Shown here piece after piece: positions 3,001-34,370 of a DNA stretch of 64,000 nt. The translations under genes were made by a program, and so were the position numbers. The notes beneath the pieces are model-generated. The model was not told where the DNA came from and did not search any database. It saw only the letters and a program-made list of their open reading frames with translations. Each line of letters begins with the position of its first letter. Positions within the stretch are counted from its first letter, which is position 1. This DNA is from a virus (lineage: Duplodnaviria > Caudoviricetes): positions 12,424-76,423 of IMG/VR virus record IMGVR_UViG_3300026549_000069; one strand, 5' to 3'.

Positions 3001-4019
3001 CATTTGGCGATTCGACTGGAACTATACACACAATCGAAAATCCGCTATACAACAACGACATCCTGCGTTGTGTTGTCGCTAAAAGCGAGGGGGATGCATT
3101 TAATATTTCCCATTGGCAACCAGTACAAGAATTCACTACAAGTCGGATAGTTCAAAACTCCAACCAAATCAAACTTGAAGTACAGCAAGGGATGGAAACT
3201 ACTGGTATTAACATCACAACAGGGAAGATTGAACTGAATGCAGCAAACACAGTCGTTTCAAATACATTGTCTGTAGCTAGATTGGAAACACACCCAGACA
3301 CAAGCGTTGATGCTACGAATAAAGCAAAAGTTCAAATCAGTGGCAGTACAATGAACGTGTTTGGCGCGACTGGAATCATGAACATACAATTTGGTGTTGA
3401 TGATGACGGATATGCTGTATTGAAATACTACGACAATGATGGATTCCTTTTGTATGACCTTGGGCCGCACGGGATTAGAACTTTAGATATTAGTTCTGAA
3501 GGCTTTGATTACGATGATTTGTATGTGGTGACACAAGAAGGGGCAAACGACACAAGTGACACATTGGCCACACTAGGCAGGTATCATCCTAAAAAGATAG
3601 CGACAGTTGTTTCGGCCGGCACGATTGCGGATAATAATGATGCAATTGCAGCAGAGGCTAGTGGCAAATGGTTTACGACAACAACGTATGGTGCTGAAAT
3701 TTCAACAATAGTCGCTAATGGTGCTCTTGATACATCAATATTAGCAAACGGAACATATAGGTGGACAAACGAAATATTTTCAATGTCAAACCTTGAATTA
3801 TATGGTAATAGTGTCAGCGATGCAAAAGCGGATTTAATTCTTCAAACAGGAATATCACAAGCACAAGCAGATGCTTTTGATTGGGAGCTTAATACTTCGC
3901 AGTCAAATTTTGTACTAAAACGTACTATATATTGGCGAGAATATACTAACTTTGTCGATGGTGTCGAACAACCACAACATATTACAGTATGGCAAACTGA
4001 AGAATATAATGAGAATTAA
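6..4019 (+). CDS. Phage tail-tip/baseplate hub-type structural protein (5' truncated)
   Basis: Frame open to window edge; KIITRIAGYGSERNIP and ADYFNVRKKLQANEVEI segments typical of Bacteroidales phage tail proteins; heads the tail-lysis operon. Confidence 0.75.
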   Translation: MREGMVSDNGDLKGMTKYSFEFYHPMHMLSNFPFTDVAVSNDELLYKSQDKVFSWVGYLQDYINKLNKNLQETQWICDLSPLTQESTLKKFSDVLTFDNNTIADALKTAFDTWGVPFVIDVISVTDERYAQGKRFLIHFGEPSNEIYESEDAKEASTPFVFKFGQGVGLKNNSATPKNNKIITRIAGYGSERNIPFGYPQIVWDENGDESELQYPLYDGIVGGRWVKLIKHPFTRNHLMPTIYAETVARKVNPMDAHYDPNTTIIDYHDALDQSIYQHTINPNSPSYESHEFEDIFPELGVKNIVAVQPINDDMTDAQDWDDSVDDQGNYKQGYFKLTLPVLDFDLYACAAITEEMQINMRTGACIGCTFTIQVDWEDYKKNFYDADNNFSPDGSQRDLTKYPKSQNGQIIVICQKDTNTFGTLMPNIFQKPKGTIAGEYEGDEFVVLGISLPESHIINAQYRLDAAMDEYMLENNVYYFDYPLKFDEHFLATHTYVLNQIKNNTIVRFEFKGEIIPLYVKQITIKYGESPLPQYTITLTDDVDIVLNQIGQVTDDVSKMRVQISSLQSYWYRSGAGGSGTDNTKLSKVVDDTASGVITFLQGLLAGNWVEDSSGAAIHQNNDGNWVIEADYFNVRKKLQANEVEIMHSSHIGGRLIATAGSMVVTKVQYIDNYQTIVYSNIWNGSCYKCWFNTTDSDGNVIYNTFKVGDLAYCETFNLTTSSDGLTNHSTGNHFYWRKVVETGSDYIILSNVFGEYAAESDYPYVGDHITLLGSQAYIGSAGTQPIGEGEQGVPAGVDSYEIDTSRQNAIIMAGAGAGNPYIRVYKGIDTFVLPNPVVQISPSGSWITVTDNNGNDVKITDLIDSLQDQVDQVKEQDDKQIVLWFGNETPTLNNAPAVNWETEQIRHEHANDIYYNRDAGLAYSFIETITENIASYSWDLLTDQDVLRSLELAAKAQDTADGKRRVFVARPTQAQAYDIGDLWVNATFPTEISDGESTFGDSTGTIHTIENPLYNNDILRCVVAKSEGDAFNISHWQPVQEFTTSRIVQNSNQIKLEVQQGMETTGINITTGKIELNAANTVVSNTLSVARLETHPDTSVDATNKAKVQISGSTMNVFGATGIMNIQFGVDDDGYAVLKYYDNDGFLLYDLGPHGIRTLDISSEGFDYDDLYVVTQEGANDTSDTLATLGRYHPKKIATVVSAGTIADNNDAIAAEASGKWFTTTTYGAEISTIVANGALDTSILANGTYRWTNEIFSMSNLELYGNSVSDAKADLILQTGISQAQADAFDWELNTSQSNFVLKRTIYWREYTNFVDGVEQPQHITVWQTEEYNEN

Positions 4020-4612: not shown

Positions 4613-7600
4613 ATGACAAACATTAATGATTTATTAAACAAGATTGAAAACGAGGGCAAAACACCGTCAGGGCGTGTTTCCGCAGAAGAGTTCAATCGTC
4701 TTGTCACTGCTGTGGGAGAAAACCAAGGGGCTGTACATAAGGTGACGATTGACAATGTGGAGTTCACGCCAGATGATGACGGCAATGTAACCCTTGTTAT
4801 CGACCAAGGTGACATCACATACAGCCTTGTGCTAGAGTTTCAAAGCGCACCACAAGTACTACAAAGAAGTACAGATGTTAGTGTGAATGTCCGCGTCAAG
4901 TCTAGCTACAAACGTGAGGGCATAACAACACCATTATCAGAAGTCGCAAGGGTTGTCATCAAAACTAGAACAAGCATTGATGGCGCATGGGTGAATGCTA
5001 CGACTGTGGCAATAGGCACAAATTCAGAAAGCTACACTACAATCCCTTTGAAAAATTACTTGAATATTGGCACAAATTATGTGCAATTCCAAGCAATCAG
5101 CGACAATACTAGGGATGTTGTGAATGAGTTTGAATTAAACGTTGTCAACCTTTCGCTTTCACCGAACAATGCATTTGAAAGGCCATTCACGGACACATTG
5201 ACATTGAACTACTTGATTAGTGGTTCTTATCCAAAGCAAATGCAATTCCAATTTGGTAGTGGAAATGGCAGCTACTTTACCCCTGTGTTTTCGTATTTGA
5301 CCGACAATAGGCTTATTGTTAATCTTGACAGTAGTTCCTATATGGAAAGCGGCCGTGATTTCCAATTTACGGATGCTGATATTCTAGAAACAATGTTGGC
5401 GGAGGGCGTACACACGGTTAAAGCGAGGTTGTATATTAGCGAAGATGTCAATACCGATTGGGTGGAAACTCAATATGTTGTCGCAGGTCAAATTCCTTAT
5501 GTGTCACTGAATAACATTTCGCCTAATTTGACAAACTGGACTGATGTCCATTTCTTTAATTGGGCTACGACGCAAAACATTGCCGTTGTGTTCAGATTAA
5601 CAAATGAGGAGGATACATTGACCTATGCGACGTGGAACTTTGATGCTGCCGCAGAAACTAGCTATGATTTCTCAACCCAACTTGGCATTGAATTACAGGA
5701 TGCAAGTGTTACGCAATTTTACGGCATCATGCATATTGAGGATATTAACGGCAATGCGCTAGCTGATAATGTCGTGTTTAATATTGCGAACAGTGCAGCT
5801 TTTGTCCCGACAAGTGGTGCTGACTTTATTATTACGCCAGCGAATAGAAACAATAGCGAAACAAATCCAGCTAGGGTTATAAATAATGCTACTGGAAGTG
5901 TTGTCAGTGCAACGTTCACAAACTTCGGTTTCTTGACAGACGGGTGGATGCCTGTCAACAAAGATGTGAATGCAATTTCGTCGAATGCAGAAACAATCCG
6001 AGCATTACATATTCCCAGTGGGCGAAAGTTGGATATTGATTACAATCCATTTGTTGATTTCACAAGCGGCAACAACACTGGCTTGAATATGACTCTTGAA
6101 TTTGATTACAGGACAAGCAATATCCTTGATGAAAACGACCCCATTATTCGCATTGGCACAACGGCTAATGACGGCAATGTTTGGGGATTTGAAATGCTGC
6201 CAACAAAGGCATATATGTTGACAGAAAATGAACGCAATGTCGCTGACCAAGATGTTGATTGGGCAGAAGATACCAGAATGCACTTGGCTGTCAATGTTAT
6301 ATATGGTTTGCGTAATGCTGCGTATGATGAACGAATCAATCTTATCCGAATATTCTTAAACGGTGTGATTGAGCGGGAATTTACATATAATTCGGATGAC
6401 AGATTTACAGCTGCGAGTGGTGTGCATATCGTGTTTGGCAACAATACCAGCGACCTTGATATTTTTGGTGTTCGTTCTTATCGTAAGGCTTTGTCTGTTG
6501 ATGATGTTATGCGTGACTATCGTTCATCATTAAGCACGTCAAATGAAAAGATTGCTTTCTTGGAGGCAAATGACATTACAGAGGGCGGTGCGATTGATTT
6601 TGTGAAATGCCAAGGCAAATACAACATAATCGGTTTTACTGGGCCGACATTGCCACAATATATCAACGGGAACAACGAAACTGTCCATGGTGACTTGTAT
6701 ATCAATATCGTTGGCGACCCTGACCATAGCGGCACTTTGACAAATCTTGATGTAAAAGGTCAAGGTACAACAGCTATGACCTATTTCTTTTGGAATCAGC
6801 AATACAAGATTACAGACACAACACAACACCTAGACTTGCAAGGGAACACTAGGTCTGGAATGCTTGGCAAGGGATATGCGATTAAAGATGGTGAGGCACT
6901 TGCAAAGAAACTTGTAGGCAAGATTAACTTTGCATCGTCAATGCAGTCACACAAACTTGGCTTGACTTGGATTTACACAGACTTGTTCAAGCAAGTGATT
7001 TCAAATGACAATCTTCCCAGTCAAATCAAACGACAATCAAATGCACGCCTTGCGGTCTATGAAAAGCCGTTCTTGTTCTTTTGGCGCACAAGTGAAAATA
7101 GCCCGTGGGTATTCAAGAACTTAATGACATTCGGCGCTGGCAAAGGTGACAAGCCAACATTTGGTTTTAGTTCAAGTGCAACACCTGATATGATGATGGT
7201 CGAGGGTGCAGACAACGACAGACCTTTGGCTTTATTCGCCATGCCATGGAATGATGATGTCGTGTACAATACATCGTCAGAGGCTTGGATGTACAACAAT
7301 CAAAAACAATTAAACTTTGGCTTTGGCTCAACGACAAAGGTTAATGGCGAGGAGGTGCCGTCAAGTGAAAATGCAATCAATGCAATGAAAGCATTTTTTA
7401 ACTTTGTCTATACGCATCATTCTGGAATTAACTATTTCAATGGCACATTTTCTGAATTAAAGCGCAGCACAAGCGTTTCCCGCAGCAAGCTGTATTGGGT
7501 AACACAGGCCGAAAATGGTTCAAATATCTATGACTTGTATAGGTATGATGCTCTTGCAGCTACTTGGGTGAATGCAGGTGTTGACGGTGACACATTGAAT

Positions 7601-30097: not shown

Positions 30098-30310
30098 AAT
30101 ACAAACTTTTTTATCATACCCACAACCAAACATACATACAAAAAACAACCACTGGCAATCAAACAATATTGTCTTCCACTACAATCCGTCTAATCACCAG
30201 CGGCCGAAAAAAGTTTGTATATATGCTGAGGAGCGAAGTAATCCGAGATTTATTATACAAAATTGCCAATTGAATGTGGAAGATTTAGCAACATTTCAAA
30301 AATCACAGTG

Positions 30311-30342
30311 CAAAGGTAGTAGCTTTTCTTGAAATACACAAA
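30311..30342 (-). promoter_or_regulatory. Bacteroidota promoter (leftward)
   Basis: TTTG-N20-TACCTTTG. Confidence 0.8.
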
Positions 30343-30377
30343 TTTTTTCCCAAAAAAATGACAAAATTGATTTTAAA

Positions 30378-30455
30378 GCGCATTTAAGCACGTCAAACAA
30401 GCAAAATGAACAACTATACTACACAACACACAAAAACGTAACACAGGGCAATTGT
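30378..30455. repeat. Dispersed element, copy C
   Basis: gcatttaagcac...gaacaacta...acacagggcaatt with 55-nt spacing. Confidence 0.5.
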
Positions 30456-30594
30456 GGACGTTTTAGGGGCATTATAGAATTATAAGTACAATATAACTTG
30501 ATTTTTTCAAAAATTTTTTTCGTTTTTTCGAAAAAAGGGTTTGCACCACACGAAATCCACGTCCCTATCTCCCCCTCCCCCTCGGCCTAAAAGC

Positions 30595-30712
30595 TAGCTG
30601 AAACGCCCCTAAACACGCAAAACGCAAATATATTTGTATCAAACGAACAATTAACTTGAATATCAAACAATTGCACACAAAATCACCTTAAACGCTAGCT
30701 TTTTGGGCGAAA
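30595..30712. repeat. Dyad element, possible inverted member of the same family
   Basis: aaaagctagc/gctagctttt 10-bp inverted repeat; reverse strand reads gcgtttaaggtgatttt. Confidence 0.4.
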
Positions 30713-30719
30713 ATACATA

Positions 30720-31060
30720 CAATCTAATTTAATATACAATAATTTCATTTTTCTGCAAATATATCTACTTTTCATAAATTTTTGCTATTTTGCCCTAATA
30801 TTAATATAATTATTACATAACTTTAATAACTTTACAGTATAAACTGTATAATACTACACTAACAGATAATACTAGCTAATAAACAGTAGTATACTAACAG
30901 TTTATATATCAACTAAATAACAGTTAATTAGTTAATTATTATAGATATGCTTAAATAGTATGATTATAATATTACTATTAATAAATATCCATTTGGCTAG
31001 TATTTCCTTTTGGACTAGTCTAATTTGCTTTAATAATGTACCCACACGAAAGGGCTGGAT
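30720..31060. other. Very AT-rich non-coding tract (origin or terminus candidate)
   Basis: Visibly AT-dominated, no ORF, between divergent promoters. Confidence 0.45.
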
Positions 31061-31168
31061 TTAGTTAACAAACCTTTAAAAATAGGCTTATTTGTGAAAA
31101 TATCTTTCGCCTATATATATGTACACACGAAATAATGCAGTTAACAGGCGTTAAAAAAATAGGAAAAA

Positions 31169-31200
31169 TTTGGTCAATCCAGAAGGTGGGTGTACTTTTG
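31169..31200 (+). promoter_or_regulatory. Bacteroidota promoter (rightward, early)
   Basis: TTTG-N20-TACTTTTG. Confidence 0.8.
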
Positions 31201-31926
31201 CAGTGTCGAAAGGGACAAAGGAACAACCCGCCACCGTAACGCGGCGCCCCACGTCCGAACAACCAAACAAGTTAGACTAACGTTGTATGTTAGTTGAAGA
31301 GCACCTTGAAATGATGACAAACGGCATTGTACCGGATAGGTCGGAGCCAACCGTGAAAAGCTATTTAGCTCGTTGGTCCAGGAATTGACAATTCCCCACC
31401 TTCGTTAACACTTCTGGCAAAGGTGTAAGCGGTTGAGTTTTTAGACTAAAAGCGGTAACAAAGAGCCGAAGCGGGAAGGTATGCACAATGTACCGAGCTT
31501 AAAAACGTGTGAATGAATTGAATTAGCTAGTAAATTGTTCCACGTAAAACAATTGCGACGCAAAAAGCAAAATAAATGATTTTTGAGCAAATTTGCAAAG
31601 CTATCTTTATAGCATTTAATTGCAGTGAGTCAATTGCAAGTGCAGCACACAATTAGCTATCATTATAGCACTTTTGATTGTGTGCAGCGCTAAAGCAAAA
31701 ATCATTGACTTTTGCCGGTTGCGGCAGCCTGAAAAAATAAGGGCTGCAGCGCCGCAATTGTTATTAGCCAGATTAAGCAACAAAAAACACTGGCGGACGA
31801 CAGATGAGGAGAATAACAGAGTCGTTTTTTAGGAGCCTTCTCGGGCTCCCCGCCAACAAATTTAATTCACTAACCTACTTAAAGCGCTTTTCGGTTGCAG
31901 GCCTCGGCCGTGGAACCGTGTATATT
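31201..31926 (+). ncRNA. Candidate large structured RNA / leader
   Basis: No credible ORF; nested helices, e.g. 31367-72/31494-99, 31398-403/31475-80, 31575-85/31696-706, 31645-53/31677-85, three-way junction 31791-31855. Confidence 0.55.
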
Positions 31927-32487
31927 ATGGCTACAACAAACAATGCTACCGCAATCCGCATCGACAACATGAGTCTGTTTCTCCTCGGCGAGAAAAAGGT
32001 CAACTTTAAGAACGTCCTTAAAGCAACGAAGGACGGCATGACTCTTAACCGTGTTATTAGAATGATGGCGAGCAAGGATTGTTATCCCACACTCGCCGAG
32101 GACTTGAAGCTGTGTGGCATCAACTCTGCCGCCGAGCTCACGCTAAAAAATGTTAAGTCGTTGGTTGCGCCCGAGCTAAAGAAGGTGGAGACGGTAAAGA
32201 ACGAGAACGGCACCGAGCGTGAGGTGGAAGTGCTTTGCACCGTCCGTCGCGTTTTTGAAACAGAGGAGGTACAATTGTACCGTGACGGCATGCCCTTGTG
32301 CAAAGCTGGCAAACCACTCACGCAAAAGCGTGCAAAGGAGGACGAGGACGGCGAGAAGGTTGTCAAGGAGTACAAGCTGTGCAAGGTGTCTGCATGGAGC
32401 ATCGGCCTCCTCATGAACTTGCTTGCACAGTCGAAGGCTGCAAACGAGGAGCGTGCTCGCATTGCAGCTATGCAGGCTGCAAAGTAA
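31927..32487 (+). CDS. First early gene, 186 aa, unknown function
   Basis: ATG 31927 after tatatt; strongly C/G-ending codons; K/E-rich. Confidence 0.8.
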   Translation: MATTNNATAIRIDNMSLFLLGEKKVNFKNVLKATKDGMTLNRVIRMMASKDCYPTLAEDLKLCGINSAAELTLKNVKSLVAPELKKVETVKNENGTEREVEVLCTVRRVFETEEVQLYRDGMPLCKAGKPLTQKRAKEDEDGEKVVKEYKLCKVSAWSIGLLMNLLAQSKAANEERARIAAMQAAK

Positions 32488-32502
32488 TATACGGCAACAG
32501 AC

Positions 32503-32600
32503 AACCCGTCCGAGCGGGGCCGTTGGGTAGGGAGCGGCAAAGGTAGTTAGGCTCGGAGCGTTTGCCCGTCACAGTGGGGAGGTGGCGGGCGAGGTCTACA
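32503..32600 (+). ncRNA. Pistol-class self-cleaving ribozyme with an inserted hairpin
   Basis: P1 cccg/cggg; loop tccgag pairs with ctcgga; AAA linker; P2 gtag/ctac; ttagg loop; GCG; 12-bp P3; G|U site 32594/32595. Confidence 0.85.
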
Positions 32601-32616
32601 CAAAAAAGTTTGTAAT

Positions 32617-32766
32617 ATGGTAAATGTTTTTCACACAAGCGGGCTGTATTTATTCAGTGCCGCAAGCATTGCCGATGCACACAAAAAGTGCATCGAGCGG
32701 GGATTAAAAACATTTACGCAGTCAATGCGTAACGGCATACTAACTTTATATGTTACAGAGGTATGA
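32617..32766 (+). CDS. Small protein (49 aa), not in ORF track
   Basis: Open frame with ATGA overlap into next gene. Confidence 0.5.
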   Translation: MVNVFHTSGLYLFSAASIADAHKKCIERGLKTFTQSMRNGILTLYVTEV

Positions 32767-32975
32767 GCGACAAAATTACATTGGCATGCGTGATTAGTTT
32801 CATGCTATCGATTTGCGCTATGTGTGGTGCGTTTATCTGCATCGATATGGGAATTGTGGACGGAAATAACGTTTGGGCTCAGGTTGCATATACGAGCCCA
32901 GCAATTGTCTTCGCCCTATCATTGTGGGCAATCGAAATTGCCGAGACCATAGAGAGAAAACGCAACAATAACTAA
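32763..32975 (+). CDS. Small two-TM membrane protein
   Basis: 70 aa, two hydrophobic helices. Confidence 0.6.
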   Translation: MSDKITLACVISFMLSICAMCGAFICIDMGIVDGNNVWAQVAYTSPAIVFALSLWAIEIAETIERKRNNN

Positions 32976-33056
32976 ACAATAATAACTCCTGCCGCAAAAG
33001 GTGGGCGCAATCCTTTGCTACTTTGGCGAGCGAAAGAGCGAAAGTAGCGGTTTATT

Positions 33057-34370
33057 ATGGCAAAGATTAAGAATTTGCAGACAGGTGAGGAGATGACCGT
33101 TAATAACAGTGTGATTCGTAACGGCCAATTGTGGGTGTTCAACAAAACGCCAAAACTTGGCGAACGTTGGTTCGCAAAGCGTCCGATGTTGTCGCAAGAC
33201 GGCACGGTCGAAGGCACCGCGCCAAACCTTGCGCTCCGTATGACCATTGCGGAGCCGTGGGTGCTTGACACAAGCAAGCCCGAGAGAAAACAGCGTACGC
33301 CCAAGGTACGCCAACCCGAGCCCGAGCAGCCGAAGGAAACAGAAGTGCCAGAGCAACCGATACCGCAGCCAGAGCCCGAACAGCCGCAACCGACACCACA
33401 ACCCGTGCAACCTGCTCCGGCATTCAACGTCACAGGTCTTGAAGGCGGGTTGGCGCAGGTGTTCGCACCTGTGTTTCAACAGGTAGCGGCACAGATAGAG
33501 GAAAACATCCGCGCAAAAGTGGCCACAGAAATTGCCGACTTGAAGCGTGTCGCCGAGGAAAAAGCGCGGACGCTCCGCATTGAGCTGCCAGATGGAACAA
33601 AGACCAAGGTCGAAGGTCTGACAATGGACGGTTTTGATGATATGGTGCGAGATTTAGCTGCTGGCTATGCCGTGTATATGTACGGCCCCGCAGGAACAGG
33701 CAAGTCACACACAGCAAAGCAACTTGCGGCCGCACTTGGTTTGCCATACTACGAACTTAATCAGGTTGAGTTCGCACACGAGGTTGCCGGCTATGGCGAT
33801 GCAAGCGGCAAGTATGTGCCGACACCACTTTACGAGGCGGTCACAAAGGGCGGCTTGCTGTTCTTTGACGAGTTTGACCGCAGCGCACAAAGTGCGACAA
33901 CTATTGTCAACACATTGTTGGCAAATCGGCGTTTTACATTCCCTGTCGTTGGCAATGTTGAGGCACACCCGAATTTCCGTGTGGTTGCCGCAGGTAATAC
34001 GACTATGACTGGCGCAAGTAACGAGTATGTTGCCGCCAACGTGATTGACGCATCAAGTCGTGACCGATTTGTGTTTTACAAAACGTATTACGACGAGCGC
34101 ATTGAGCTGCCTGTTATGGCTGGCGGTGATAAAGAACTTGTGGATTTCATGCAAGACTTGCGACAATCAATTGAGAAATCGCACATCTCGCTTGTTGCAA
34201 GTATGCGTGCAACCAAGTACTTGCACACGCACGACAACAACAAGCGCACCGCACTTGAGCGCGGTTTGTTCAAGGGCATGGATGCCGAGGACATTCGTGT
34301 GCTGTACAACAATCTTTCGAGCAAAGGTCTGATAACGAGCTGGGCCGATGCAATGCAAGAATTGTGCTAA
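33057..34370 (+). CDS. MoxR/CbbQ-like AAA+ ATPase
   Basis: GPAGTGKS Walker A, LLFFDEFD Walker B, AAGN, SRDRF; P/E/Q linker after N-terminal domain. Confidence 0.88.
   Translation: MAKIKNLQTGEEMTVNNSVIRNGQLWVFNKTPKLGERWFAKRPMLSQDGTVEGTAPNLALRMTIAEPWVLDTSKPERKQRTPKVRQPEPEQPKETEVPEQPIPQPEPEQPQPTPQPVQPAPAFNVTGLEGGLAQVFAPVFQQVAAQIEENIRAKVATEIADLKRVAEEKARTLRIELPDGTKTKVEGLTMDGFDDMVRDLAAGYAVYMYGPAGTGKSHTAKQLAAALGLPYYELNQVEFAHEVAGYGDASGKYVPTPLYEAVTKGGLLFFDEFDRSAQSATTIVNTLLANRRFTFPVVGNVEAHPNFRVVAAGNTTMTGASNEYVAANVIDASSRDRFVFYKTYYDERIELPVMAGGDKELVDFMQDLRQSIEKSHISLVASMRATKYLHTHDNNKRTALERGLFKGMDAEDIRVLYNNLSSKGLITSWADAMQELC

Follow-up and report, generated by a model that had tools for sequence, protein, structure and literature searches.

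We examined if a stretch of a rumen phage genome is a pistol ribozyme that carries a hairpin within a linker that canonical members keep single-stranded. Few classes of self-cleaving ribozyme occur in nature, and pistol is among them; structural and mechanistic studies regard the linker between its helices P1 and P2 (J1-2), with its adenine triple, as a fixed element of the fold. The canonical J1-2 is a 7-nt single strand, of which A19-A21 form A-minor triples in the P1 minor groove (PMC6101554; also PMC11300833). The window (the whole stretch of DNA that was analysed, 64,000 nt) represents positions 12,424-76,423 of a 76.4-kb IMG/VR virus record, IMGVR_UViG_3300026549_000069, with an estimated completeness of 96%; the DNA runs containing the window come from bovine gut samples. 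Judging from the sequence and its relatives, we consider it likely that 32505-32599 is a genuine pistol-class ribozyme of a distinct structural subtype, and one that is probably active.

Architecture of the element and its Rfam score

The element begins 17 nt past the stop of a conserved ORF and is built as follows.

31927-32487, plus strand: conserved 186-aa ORF, with its start set by homologs P0001-P0010
32505-32508, plus strand: 5' strand of P1 (cccg), pairing with 32515-18
32509-32514, plus strand: P1 loop and 5' strand of the pseudoknot (uccgag), 6/6 Watson-Crick with 32552-57
32515-32518, plus strand: 3' strand of P1 (cggg), pairing with 32505-08
32519-32538, plus strand: hairpin inserted in J1-2 directly after P1, stem gccguu/agcggc, 8-nt loop ggguaggg
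32539-32542, plus strand: single-stranded tail of J1-2, AAAG (AAA at 32539-41, then G32542)
32543-32546, plus strand: 5' strand of P2 (guag), pairing with 32596-99
32547-32551, plus strand: core UUAGG, identical to the Rfam consensus UUAgG
32552-32557, plus strand: 3' strand of the pseudoknot (cucgga), exact reverse complement of 32509-14
32558-32560, plus strand: G-C-G of the Rfam consensus GAGCGU, with C32559 pairing with G32551
32561-32593, plus strand: P3 hairpin of 12 bp (32561-72 / 32582-93) with a 9-nt loop, first pair U32561-G32593
32594-32595, plus strand: predicted scissile G-U junction, the 2 nt between P3 and P2, aligned to GU of the Rfam consensus GGU
32596-32599, plus strand: 3' strand of P2 (cuac), pairing with 32543-46

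The 4-bp P1 is followed by a J1-2 linker of 24 nt rather than a single strand of about 7 nt, and 20 of these lie in the inserted hairpin (-9.9 kcal/mol when folded alone). By analogy, the AAAG tail is probably the counterpart of the A-rich strand that lies in the P1 minor groove of canonical pistols. The 12 bp of P3 include three G-U pairs. An earlier note on 32503-32600 had described a pistol with all elements in order, a shortened P1 and an extra hairpin in the linker; every coordinate and element that it gave agrees with the sequence, base for base. Mapping by analogy, after PMC6154101, would place env25 G40 at G32558, G33 at G32551, purine 32 at G32550 and the scissile G53-U54 at G32594-U32595; position 32 is conserved as a purine in pistols (PMC6154101), and the length of the P3-P2 junction is strictly conserved in the class (PMC4604425). 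A descriptor of the whole architecture, with the linker length left free, found the site at 32505-32599 as its sole match in the window and gave 1 match in 300 Markov-shuffled windows, so that the architecture represents more than chance.

The Rfam Pistol model RF02679 (gathering cut-off 34.5 bits) aligned to a 65-nt slice with 21.8 bits (E 0.012) over model positions 24-68 only, with the consensus UUAgGC...GAGCGU and GGU matched letter for letter; a slice of 102 nt (32501-32602) scored 20.1 bits over the full model length, and a further scan of the element gave 11.1 bits. The match surfaced only on slices of about 100 nt or less, no pistol being reported for the whole window (at the gathering threshold and at E<=1) or for a 301-nt slice. 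The pistol model, which the earlier note had named as a check, aligns the core but leaves the element below a gathering score that canonical orthologs pass with 36.8-43.9 bits; with 20-22 bits against 34.5 bits, the element is a variant and not a textbook member. A blastn search against GenBank phages returned 24-nt chance matches only.

Related loci and covariation

Relatives were reached via homologs of the 186-aa ORF, and the stretch just past the ORF stop was read in each contig. The homologs all begin at the equivalent of 31927, so the gene is probably 186 aa and not the 227 aa of the longest ORF call, which begins at 31804; the ORF had no match in Pfam or PHROG. In nine loci a pistol lies 6-63 nt past the stop of the ORF homolog. 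Canonical pistols with a 5-bp P1 and a single-stranded linker occupy this site in L020 (43.9 bits with RF02679, linker 8-9 nt), L161 (38.4 bits, 8 nt) and L156 (36.8 bits, 8 nt). Since the same post-ORF site holds full-length pistols above the Rfam cut-off, homology is positional as well as structural, and the pistol identity proposed in the earlier note is borne out both here and by the 3' two thirds of the element, which align to RF02679 with all core nucleotides.

The hairpin form was found at six related loci (L152, L153, L154, L162, L160 and L157), and the distinct hairpin-form sequences number six in this locus lineage, or seven when an unrelated contig, L073 (see below), is included. 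L153 and L154 are nearly identical to the window (AAAG tail in L153). L152 has P1 ccag/cugg, a compensatory change, with an AAAG tail and an A-G mismatch in the hairpin. In L162 the hairpin stem is gcuguu/aacagc, in which the third pair is U-A instead of C-G and the fifth A-U instead of G-U; its P1 is cucg/cggg, its tail AAAG, and its hairpin loop gggugggg as compared with ggguaggg in the window. L160 has P1 cacg/cgug, a shorter 4-bp hairpin with a gcaaa loop and then AAAG; its P3 differs in sequence, yet still has 12 bp, and a G-A mismatch in P2 lies next to the predicted cleavage site. L157 has another 6-bp hairpin with an 11-nt loop, a GAG tail, and the pseudoknot accaag/cuuggu.

Across the hairpin forms, the inserted hairpin takes up 13-23 nt with 4-6 bp and is followed by 3-4 unpaired nt up to P2. 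The length of this tail tracks that of P1 (4 bp with AAAG or GAG, 3 bp with GAG), whereas the canonical orthologs combine their 5-bp P1 with an 8-nt linker. Both the hairpin and the 4-bp P1 that the earlier note had reported for the window are thus seen again in relatives, with compensatory changes. The AAA that it had placed after the hairpin is present in the window, and AAAG is common to the window, L152, L153, L162 and L160, but it is not universal in the subtype, L157 and L073 having GAG instead.

Two further observations concern individual loci. In L157 (2040-2167) the pistol P3 is only 2 bp, and a strong G+C-rich hairpin lies between the ORF stop and P1; this pistol may be a weakened copy. 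L155 has no pistol after its homolog of the 186-aa ORF, which would make the element dispensable.

A covariance model of the hairpin form (R1) was built and 18 distinct pistols, of canonical and hairpin form, were aligned, with the pseudoknot added. In this alignment, which was fitted to the model so that its figures lean towards structure, 97.6% of the cells pair (compared with 70.7% in shuffles and 33-47% with slid partners), and both-sided changes occur in 28/33 pairs: 3/4 in P1, 4/6 in the pseudoknot (where 95.4% of the cells pair), 4/4 in P2, 11/12 in P3 and, from 6-7 sequences, 6/6 in the inserted hairpin. The equivalents of the G32551-C32559 pair and the first pair of P3, U-G, are each invariant (18/18). 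The same compensatory changes are seen in the raw unaligned sequences, and those in P1, the pseudoknot, the inserted hairpin and P3 occur among the six hairpin-form sequences themselves. Loop and pseudoknot strand always change together (uccgag/cucgga, acaggg/cccuga, accaag/cuuggu); the pairing of loop and junction that the earlier note had proposed covaries with the canonical pistols at the same locus in related phages.

The hairpin-form ribozymes of the window and L162 are 92% identical and the canonical ones of L156 and L161 are 95% identical, while the protein of the adjacent ORF shows only 42-49% amino-acid identity in these pairs. Both forms therefore persist in diverged genomes, and the ribozyme is either under strong constraint or exchanged as a cassette; its high identity across diverged phages could mean that the cassette was exchanged recently, and not that purifying selection has acted for long. 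Canonical and hairpin forms have P2/P3 modules that are 91-97% identical, and the 5' module (P1, loop and linker) is accompanied by its matching pseudoknot strand. Similarity between relatives breaks off right after the ribozyme 3' end, which puts the element at a recombination boundary. Sister phages that combine either the canonical or the hairpin form with a nearly identical P2/P3 module represent a clean natural experiment on the effect of the hairpin.

Comparison of the modules of the window (32505-32599), L156 (2093-2174), L161 (1742-1822) and L162 (1721-1816) showed all four combinations of 5' module and P3-loop variant on a near-identical P2/P3 module. A conserved motif, gcggtt-nn-cg-n-tgacaggc, which contains a TTGACA-like box, follows the pistol in L153 (2224-2270), L156 (2175-2215), L161 (1823-1860) and L020 (2489-2530); other sequence stands in its place in the window, L152 and L162.

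The surrounding locus and pistols elsewhere

About 460 nt downstream lie two small ORFs, a gene for an AAA_5-type ATPase (33057-34370) and one for a DUF7192 protein. A simple promoter and terminator scan showed nothing adjoining the element. Upstream, 30167-31926 forms 1.7 kb without a conserved ORF, bounded on one side by a divergent replication-initiator gene and on the other by the 186-aa ORF. In two metatranscriptome runs of one bovine-gut sample, contigs cover parts of 31232-32448, including 31232-31831, and of 33616-33966; none covers 32449-33615, which includes the ribozyme, and the contigs show no RNA ends and are uninformative on cleavage. In an independent bovine-gut run, one DNA contig lacks 32 nt of the AAA ATPase gene (33348-33381), a difference that would put the gene out of frame and that may stem from strain variation or from faulty assembly.

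Other routes to relatives returned less. The 186-aa ORF or its alignment, used as the query, gave no match among viral contigs; the AAA ATPase query reached one relative twice (L020 = L150) and also L151, where the 700 nt preceding the ATPase match showed no pistol. A DNA pattern specific to the P2/P3 of this lineage had no match in viral or genome contigs. An Rfam scan at E<=10 in 35 kb reported none of the hairpin forms of this lineage; as hairpin-form members lie below the Rfam threshold, pistol counts in phage genomes are probably underestimates.

The hairpin form was also found by DNA pattern in L073, an 8-kb viral contig unrelated to this lineage. Its pistol (1166-1241) has a 3-bp P1, a 5-bp linker hairpin with the loop agcaa and a GAG tail, and its 3' two thirds alone score 35.6 bits. 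L073 is a typical ribozyme-rich phage operon, and that such an operon carries the linker-hairpin architecture argues that this architecture works. On the minus strand of L073, 36-3034, there are six ribozyme matches on one strand within 3 kb, including two hammerhead II matches (40.2 and 35.5 bits, cut-off 37) and three twister-P1-like matches (45-54 bits, below the cut-off of 67.2); the linker-hairpin pistol makes up the sixth.

The remaining patterns were less productive. Among the matches listed for a general core DNA pattern in viral contigs, most were an unrelated conserved gene and random matches, and another pattern gave L073 plus an unrelated gene only. A GAG-tail pattern returned L073, a canonical pistol (L159) and one non-pistol. 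A long-linker pattern with the pseudoknot sequence of the window had one match, in a Planctomycetota MAG, which was rejected as chance. One 122-kb viral contig, L003, holds two canonical pistols 4 kb apart (3048-3118 and 7196-7269), the second of which has the pseudoknot uccgag/cucgga as in the window, but a normal 8-nt linker.

Alternative readings, proposed mechanism and known systems

The Rfam alignment of 32501-32602 over the full model length puts 32521-32536 at the model P1 and 32539-41 at its AAA, as if the second hairpin (32519-38) were the true P1 and the first hairpin unrelated. This is very improbable. The model is blind to the pseudoknot, and only the loop of the first hairpin can pair with 32552-57, so that the alignment is wrong; that loop pairs 6/6 and covaries in all relatives, and the full-length alignment gains nothing in score over the partial one (20.1 vs 21.8 bits). 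The low Rfam score would also fit a resemblance by chance, or membership of a different pseudoknotted class, e.g., the pseudoknot-type hammerhead, which has the secondary structure and connectivity of pistol (PMC11300833). We give this hardly any credence: the descriptor matched once in 300 shuffled windows, orthologs are full pistols, the hammerhead core CUGAUGA ... GAAA is absent from 32505-32599, slice scans gave no hammerhead match at E up to 10, and scans of slices and of the whole window showed no other Rfam family above noise.

It is unlikely that the element is a decayed pistol, in which the hairpin abolished the minor-groove contacts of the linker, cutting was lost, and the remainder survives as a stable 3' end or spacer. 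The score below the Rfam cut-off, the loss of the conserved 7-nt linker geometry, the weakened relatives (L157 with its 2-bp P3, L160 with its P2 mismatch) and the missing element in L155 would all agree with decay; nevertheless, the catalytic core has kept all its letters, and the junction of 2 nt and the U-G pair that opens P3 are intact as well, the pseudoknot and P1 keep covarying within the hairpin lineage, a mere spacer would not need complementarity between loop and junction, and L073 has the same architecture on a contig with several other ribozyme matches. Quite improbable, in our judgement, is a conditional pistol, whose hairpin would be a docking or sensing module for a protein (e.g., the upstream ORF product) or for a tertiary receptor, gating formation of P1 and the pseudoknot and hence cutting. 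An ORF of one and the same family always accompanies the ribozyme, GNRA-like or A-rich runs occur in the loops of L160, L073 and L157, and the loop is near-unchanged between the window and L162 above a stem with compensatory changes; but this last similarity may represent recent common descent, the two ribozymes being 92% identical, and the loops of L160, L157, L073 and the window differ completely, which speaks against a common ligand or protein site.

If the element is an active pistol of a distinct subtype, as we favor, its fold would be that of other pistols, with P1 stacked on the 6-bp pseudoknot and on P3 and with P2 alongside. The predicted cut falls between G32594 and U32595; with env25 as the model, G32558 would be the general base, and the region of G32550/G32551 would arrange the Mg2+ site. 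The inserted hairpin would replace the two-nucleotide turn at which the linker normally turns back along P1. This hairpin of 4-6 bp starts right after the shortened P1 and probably stacks on it, and a short tail, AAAG in the window and about as long as P1, would still run along P1 to P2. Cutting during transcription would detach the message of the 186-aa ORF from the small ORFs and the AAA ATPase gene that lie downstream. Nearly all of the folded ribozyme would then remain at the 3' end of the upstream fragment, which would terminate in a 2',3'-cyclic phosphate; the downstream RNA would have a 5'-OH at its start, so that the stability of the two RNAs would be uncoupled.

A counter-point to this reading is that PMC6101554 describes a high conservation of the A-minor triple in the linker, that the hairpin must alter this triple, and that L157 and L073 are without AAA. 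The low Rfam score, the small set of seven distinct hairpin-form sequences and the signs of weakening in L157, L160 and L152 also speak against it. The loss of AAA in L157 and L073, however, suggests that the stabilisation can be provided by the hairpin instead. Tentatively, and with the balance rather against it, the linker hairpin may be an alternative solution, which stacks on the shortened P1 and replaces the stabilising role of the adenine triple, the triple then being dispensable; the loop gggu-r-ggg of some lineages may in addition be a docking site that makes cleavage conditional. If true, there would be a pistol subclass with a three-helix junction, and perhaps a regulated pistol of natural origin. 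A natural, recurrent and covarying linker-hairpin form would show that a tertiary contact can be rebuilt or replaced, and the hairpin position would offer a ready-made site for engineering, e.g., aptamer insertion.

The pistol class itself is already known; no description of a linker hairpin, or of an optional pistol stem, was found in the searchable literature, a scope outside of which the original 2015 discovery paper lies. With the canonical pistol (RF02679; env25 5K7C/5KTJ; Harris et al. 2015, PMC4604425) the element shares the P1 with a 6-nt loop pseudoknotted to the P2-P3 junction, the 4-bp P2, the UUAGG and GCG core with its G-C pair, the U-G-opened P3, the 2-nt G-U junction and the intergenic phage context, and orthologous loci carry textbook members; the canonical form has a single-stranded linker of about 7-8 nt and a 5-bp P1, whereas the subtype of the window has a hairpin linker and a 4-bp P1 (3 bp in L073). 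The pseudoknot-containing hammerhead (Zhan et al. 2024, PMC11300833) connects its helices as the window element does, and its A-rich linker contacts the minor groove of the stem that carries the pseudoknot loop; however, that linker is a single strand, and the catalytic core CUGAUGA/GAAA of this hammerhead is lacking in the window element. As with P0/P3/P5 of twister and P5 of hatchet (PMC6154101), a hairpin has been added to a conserved fold in some members only; unlike these optional peripheral stems, the insertion in the window replaces part of a linker that makes tertiary contacts rather than extending a peripheral loop.
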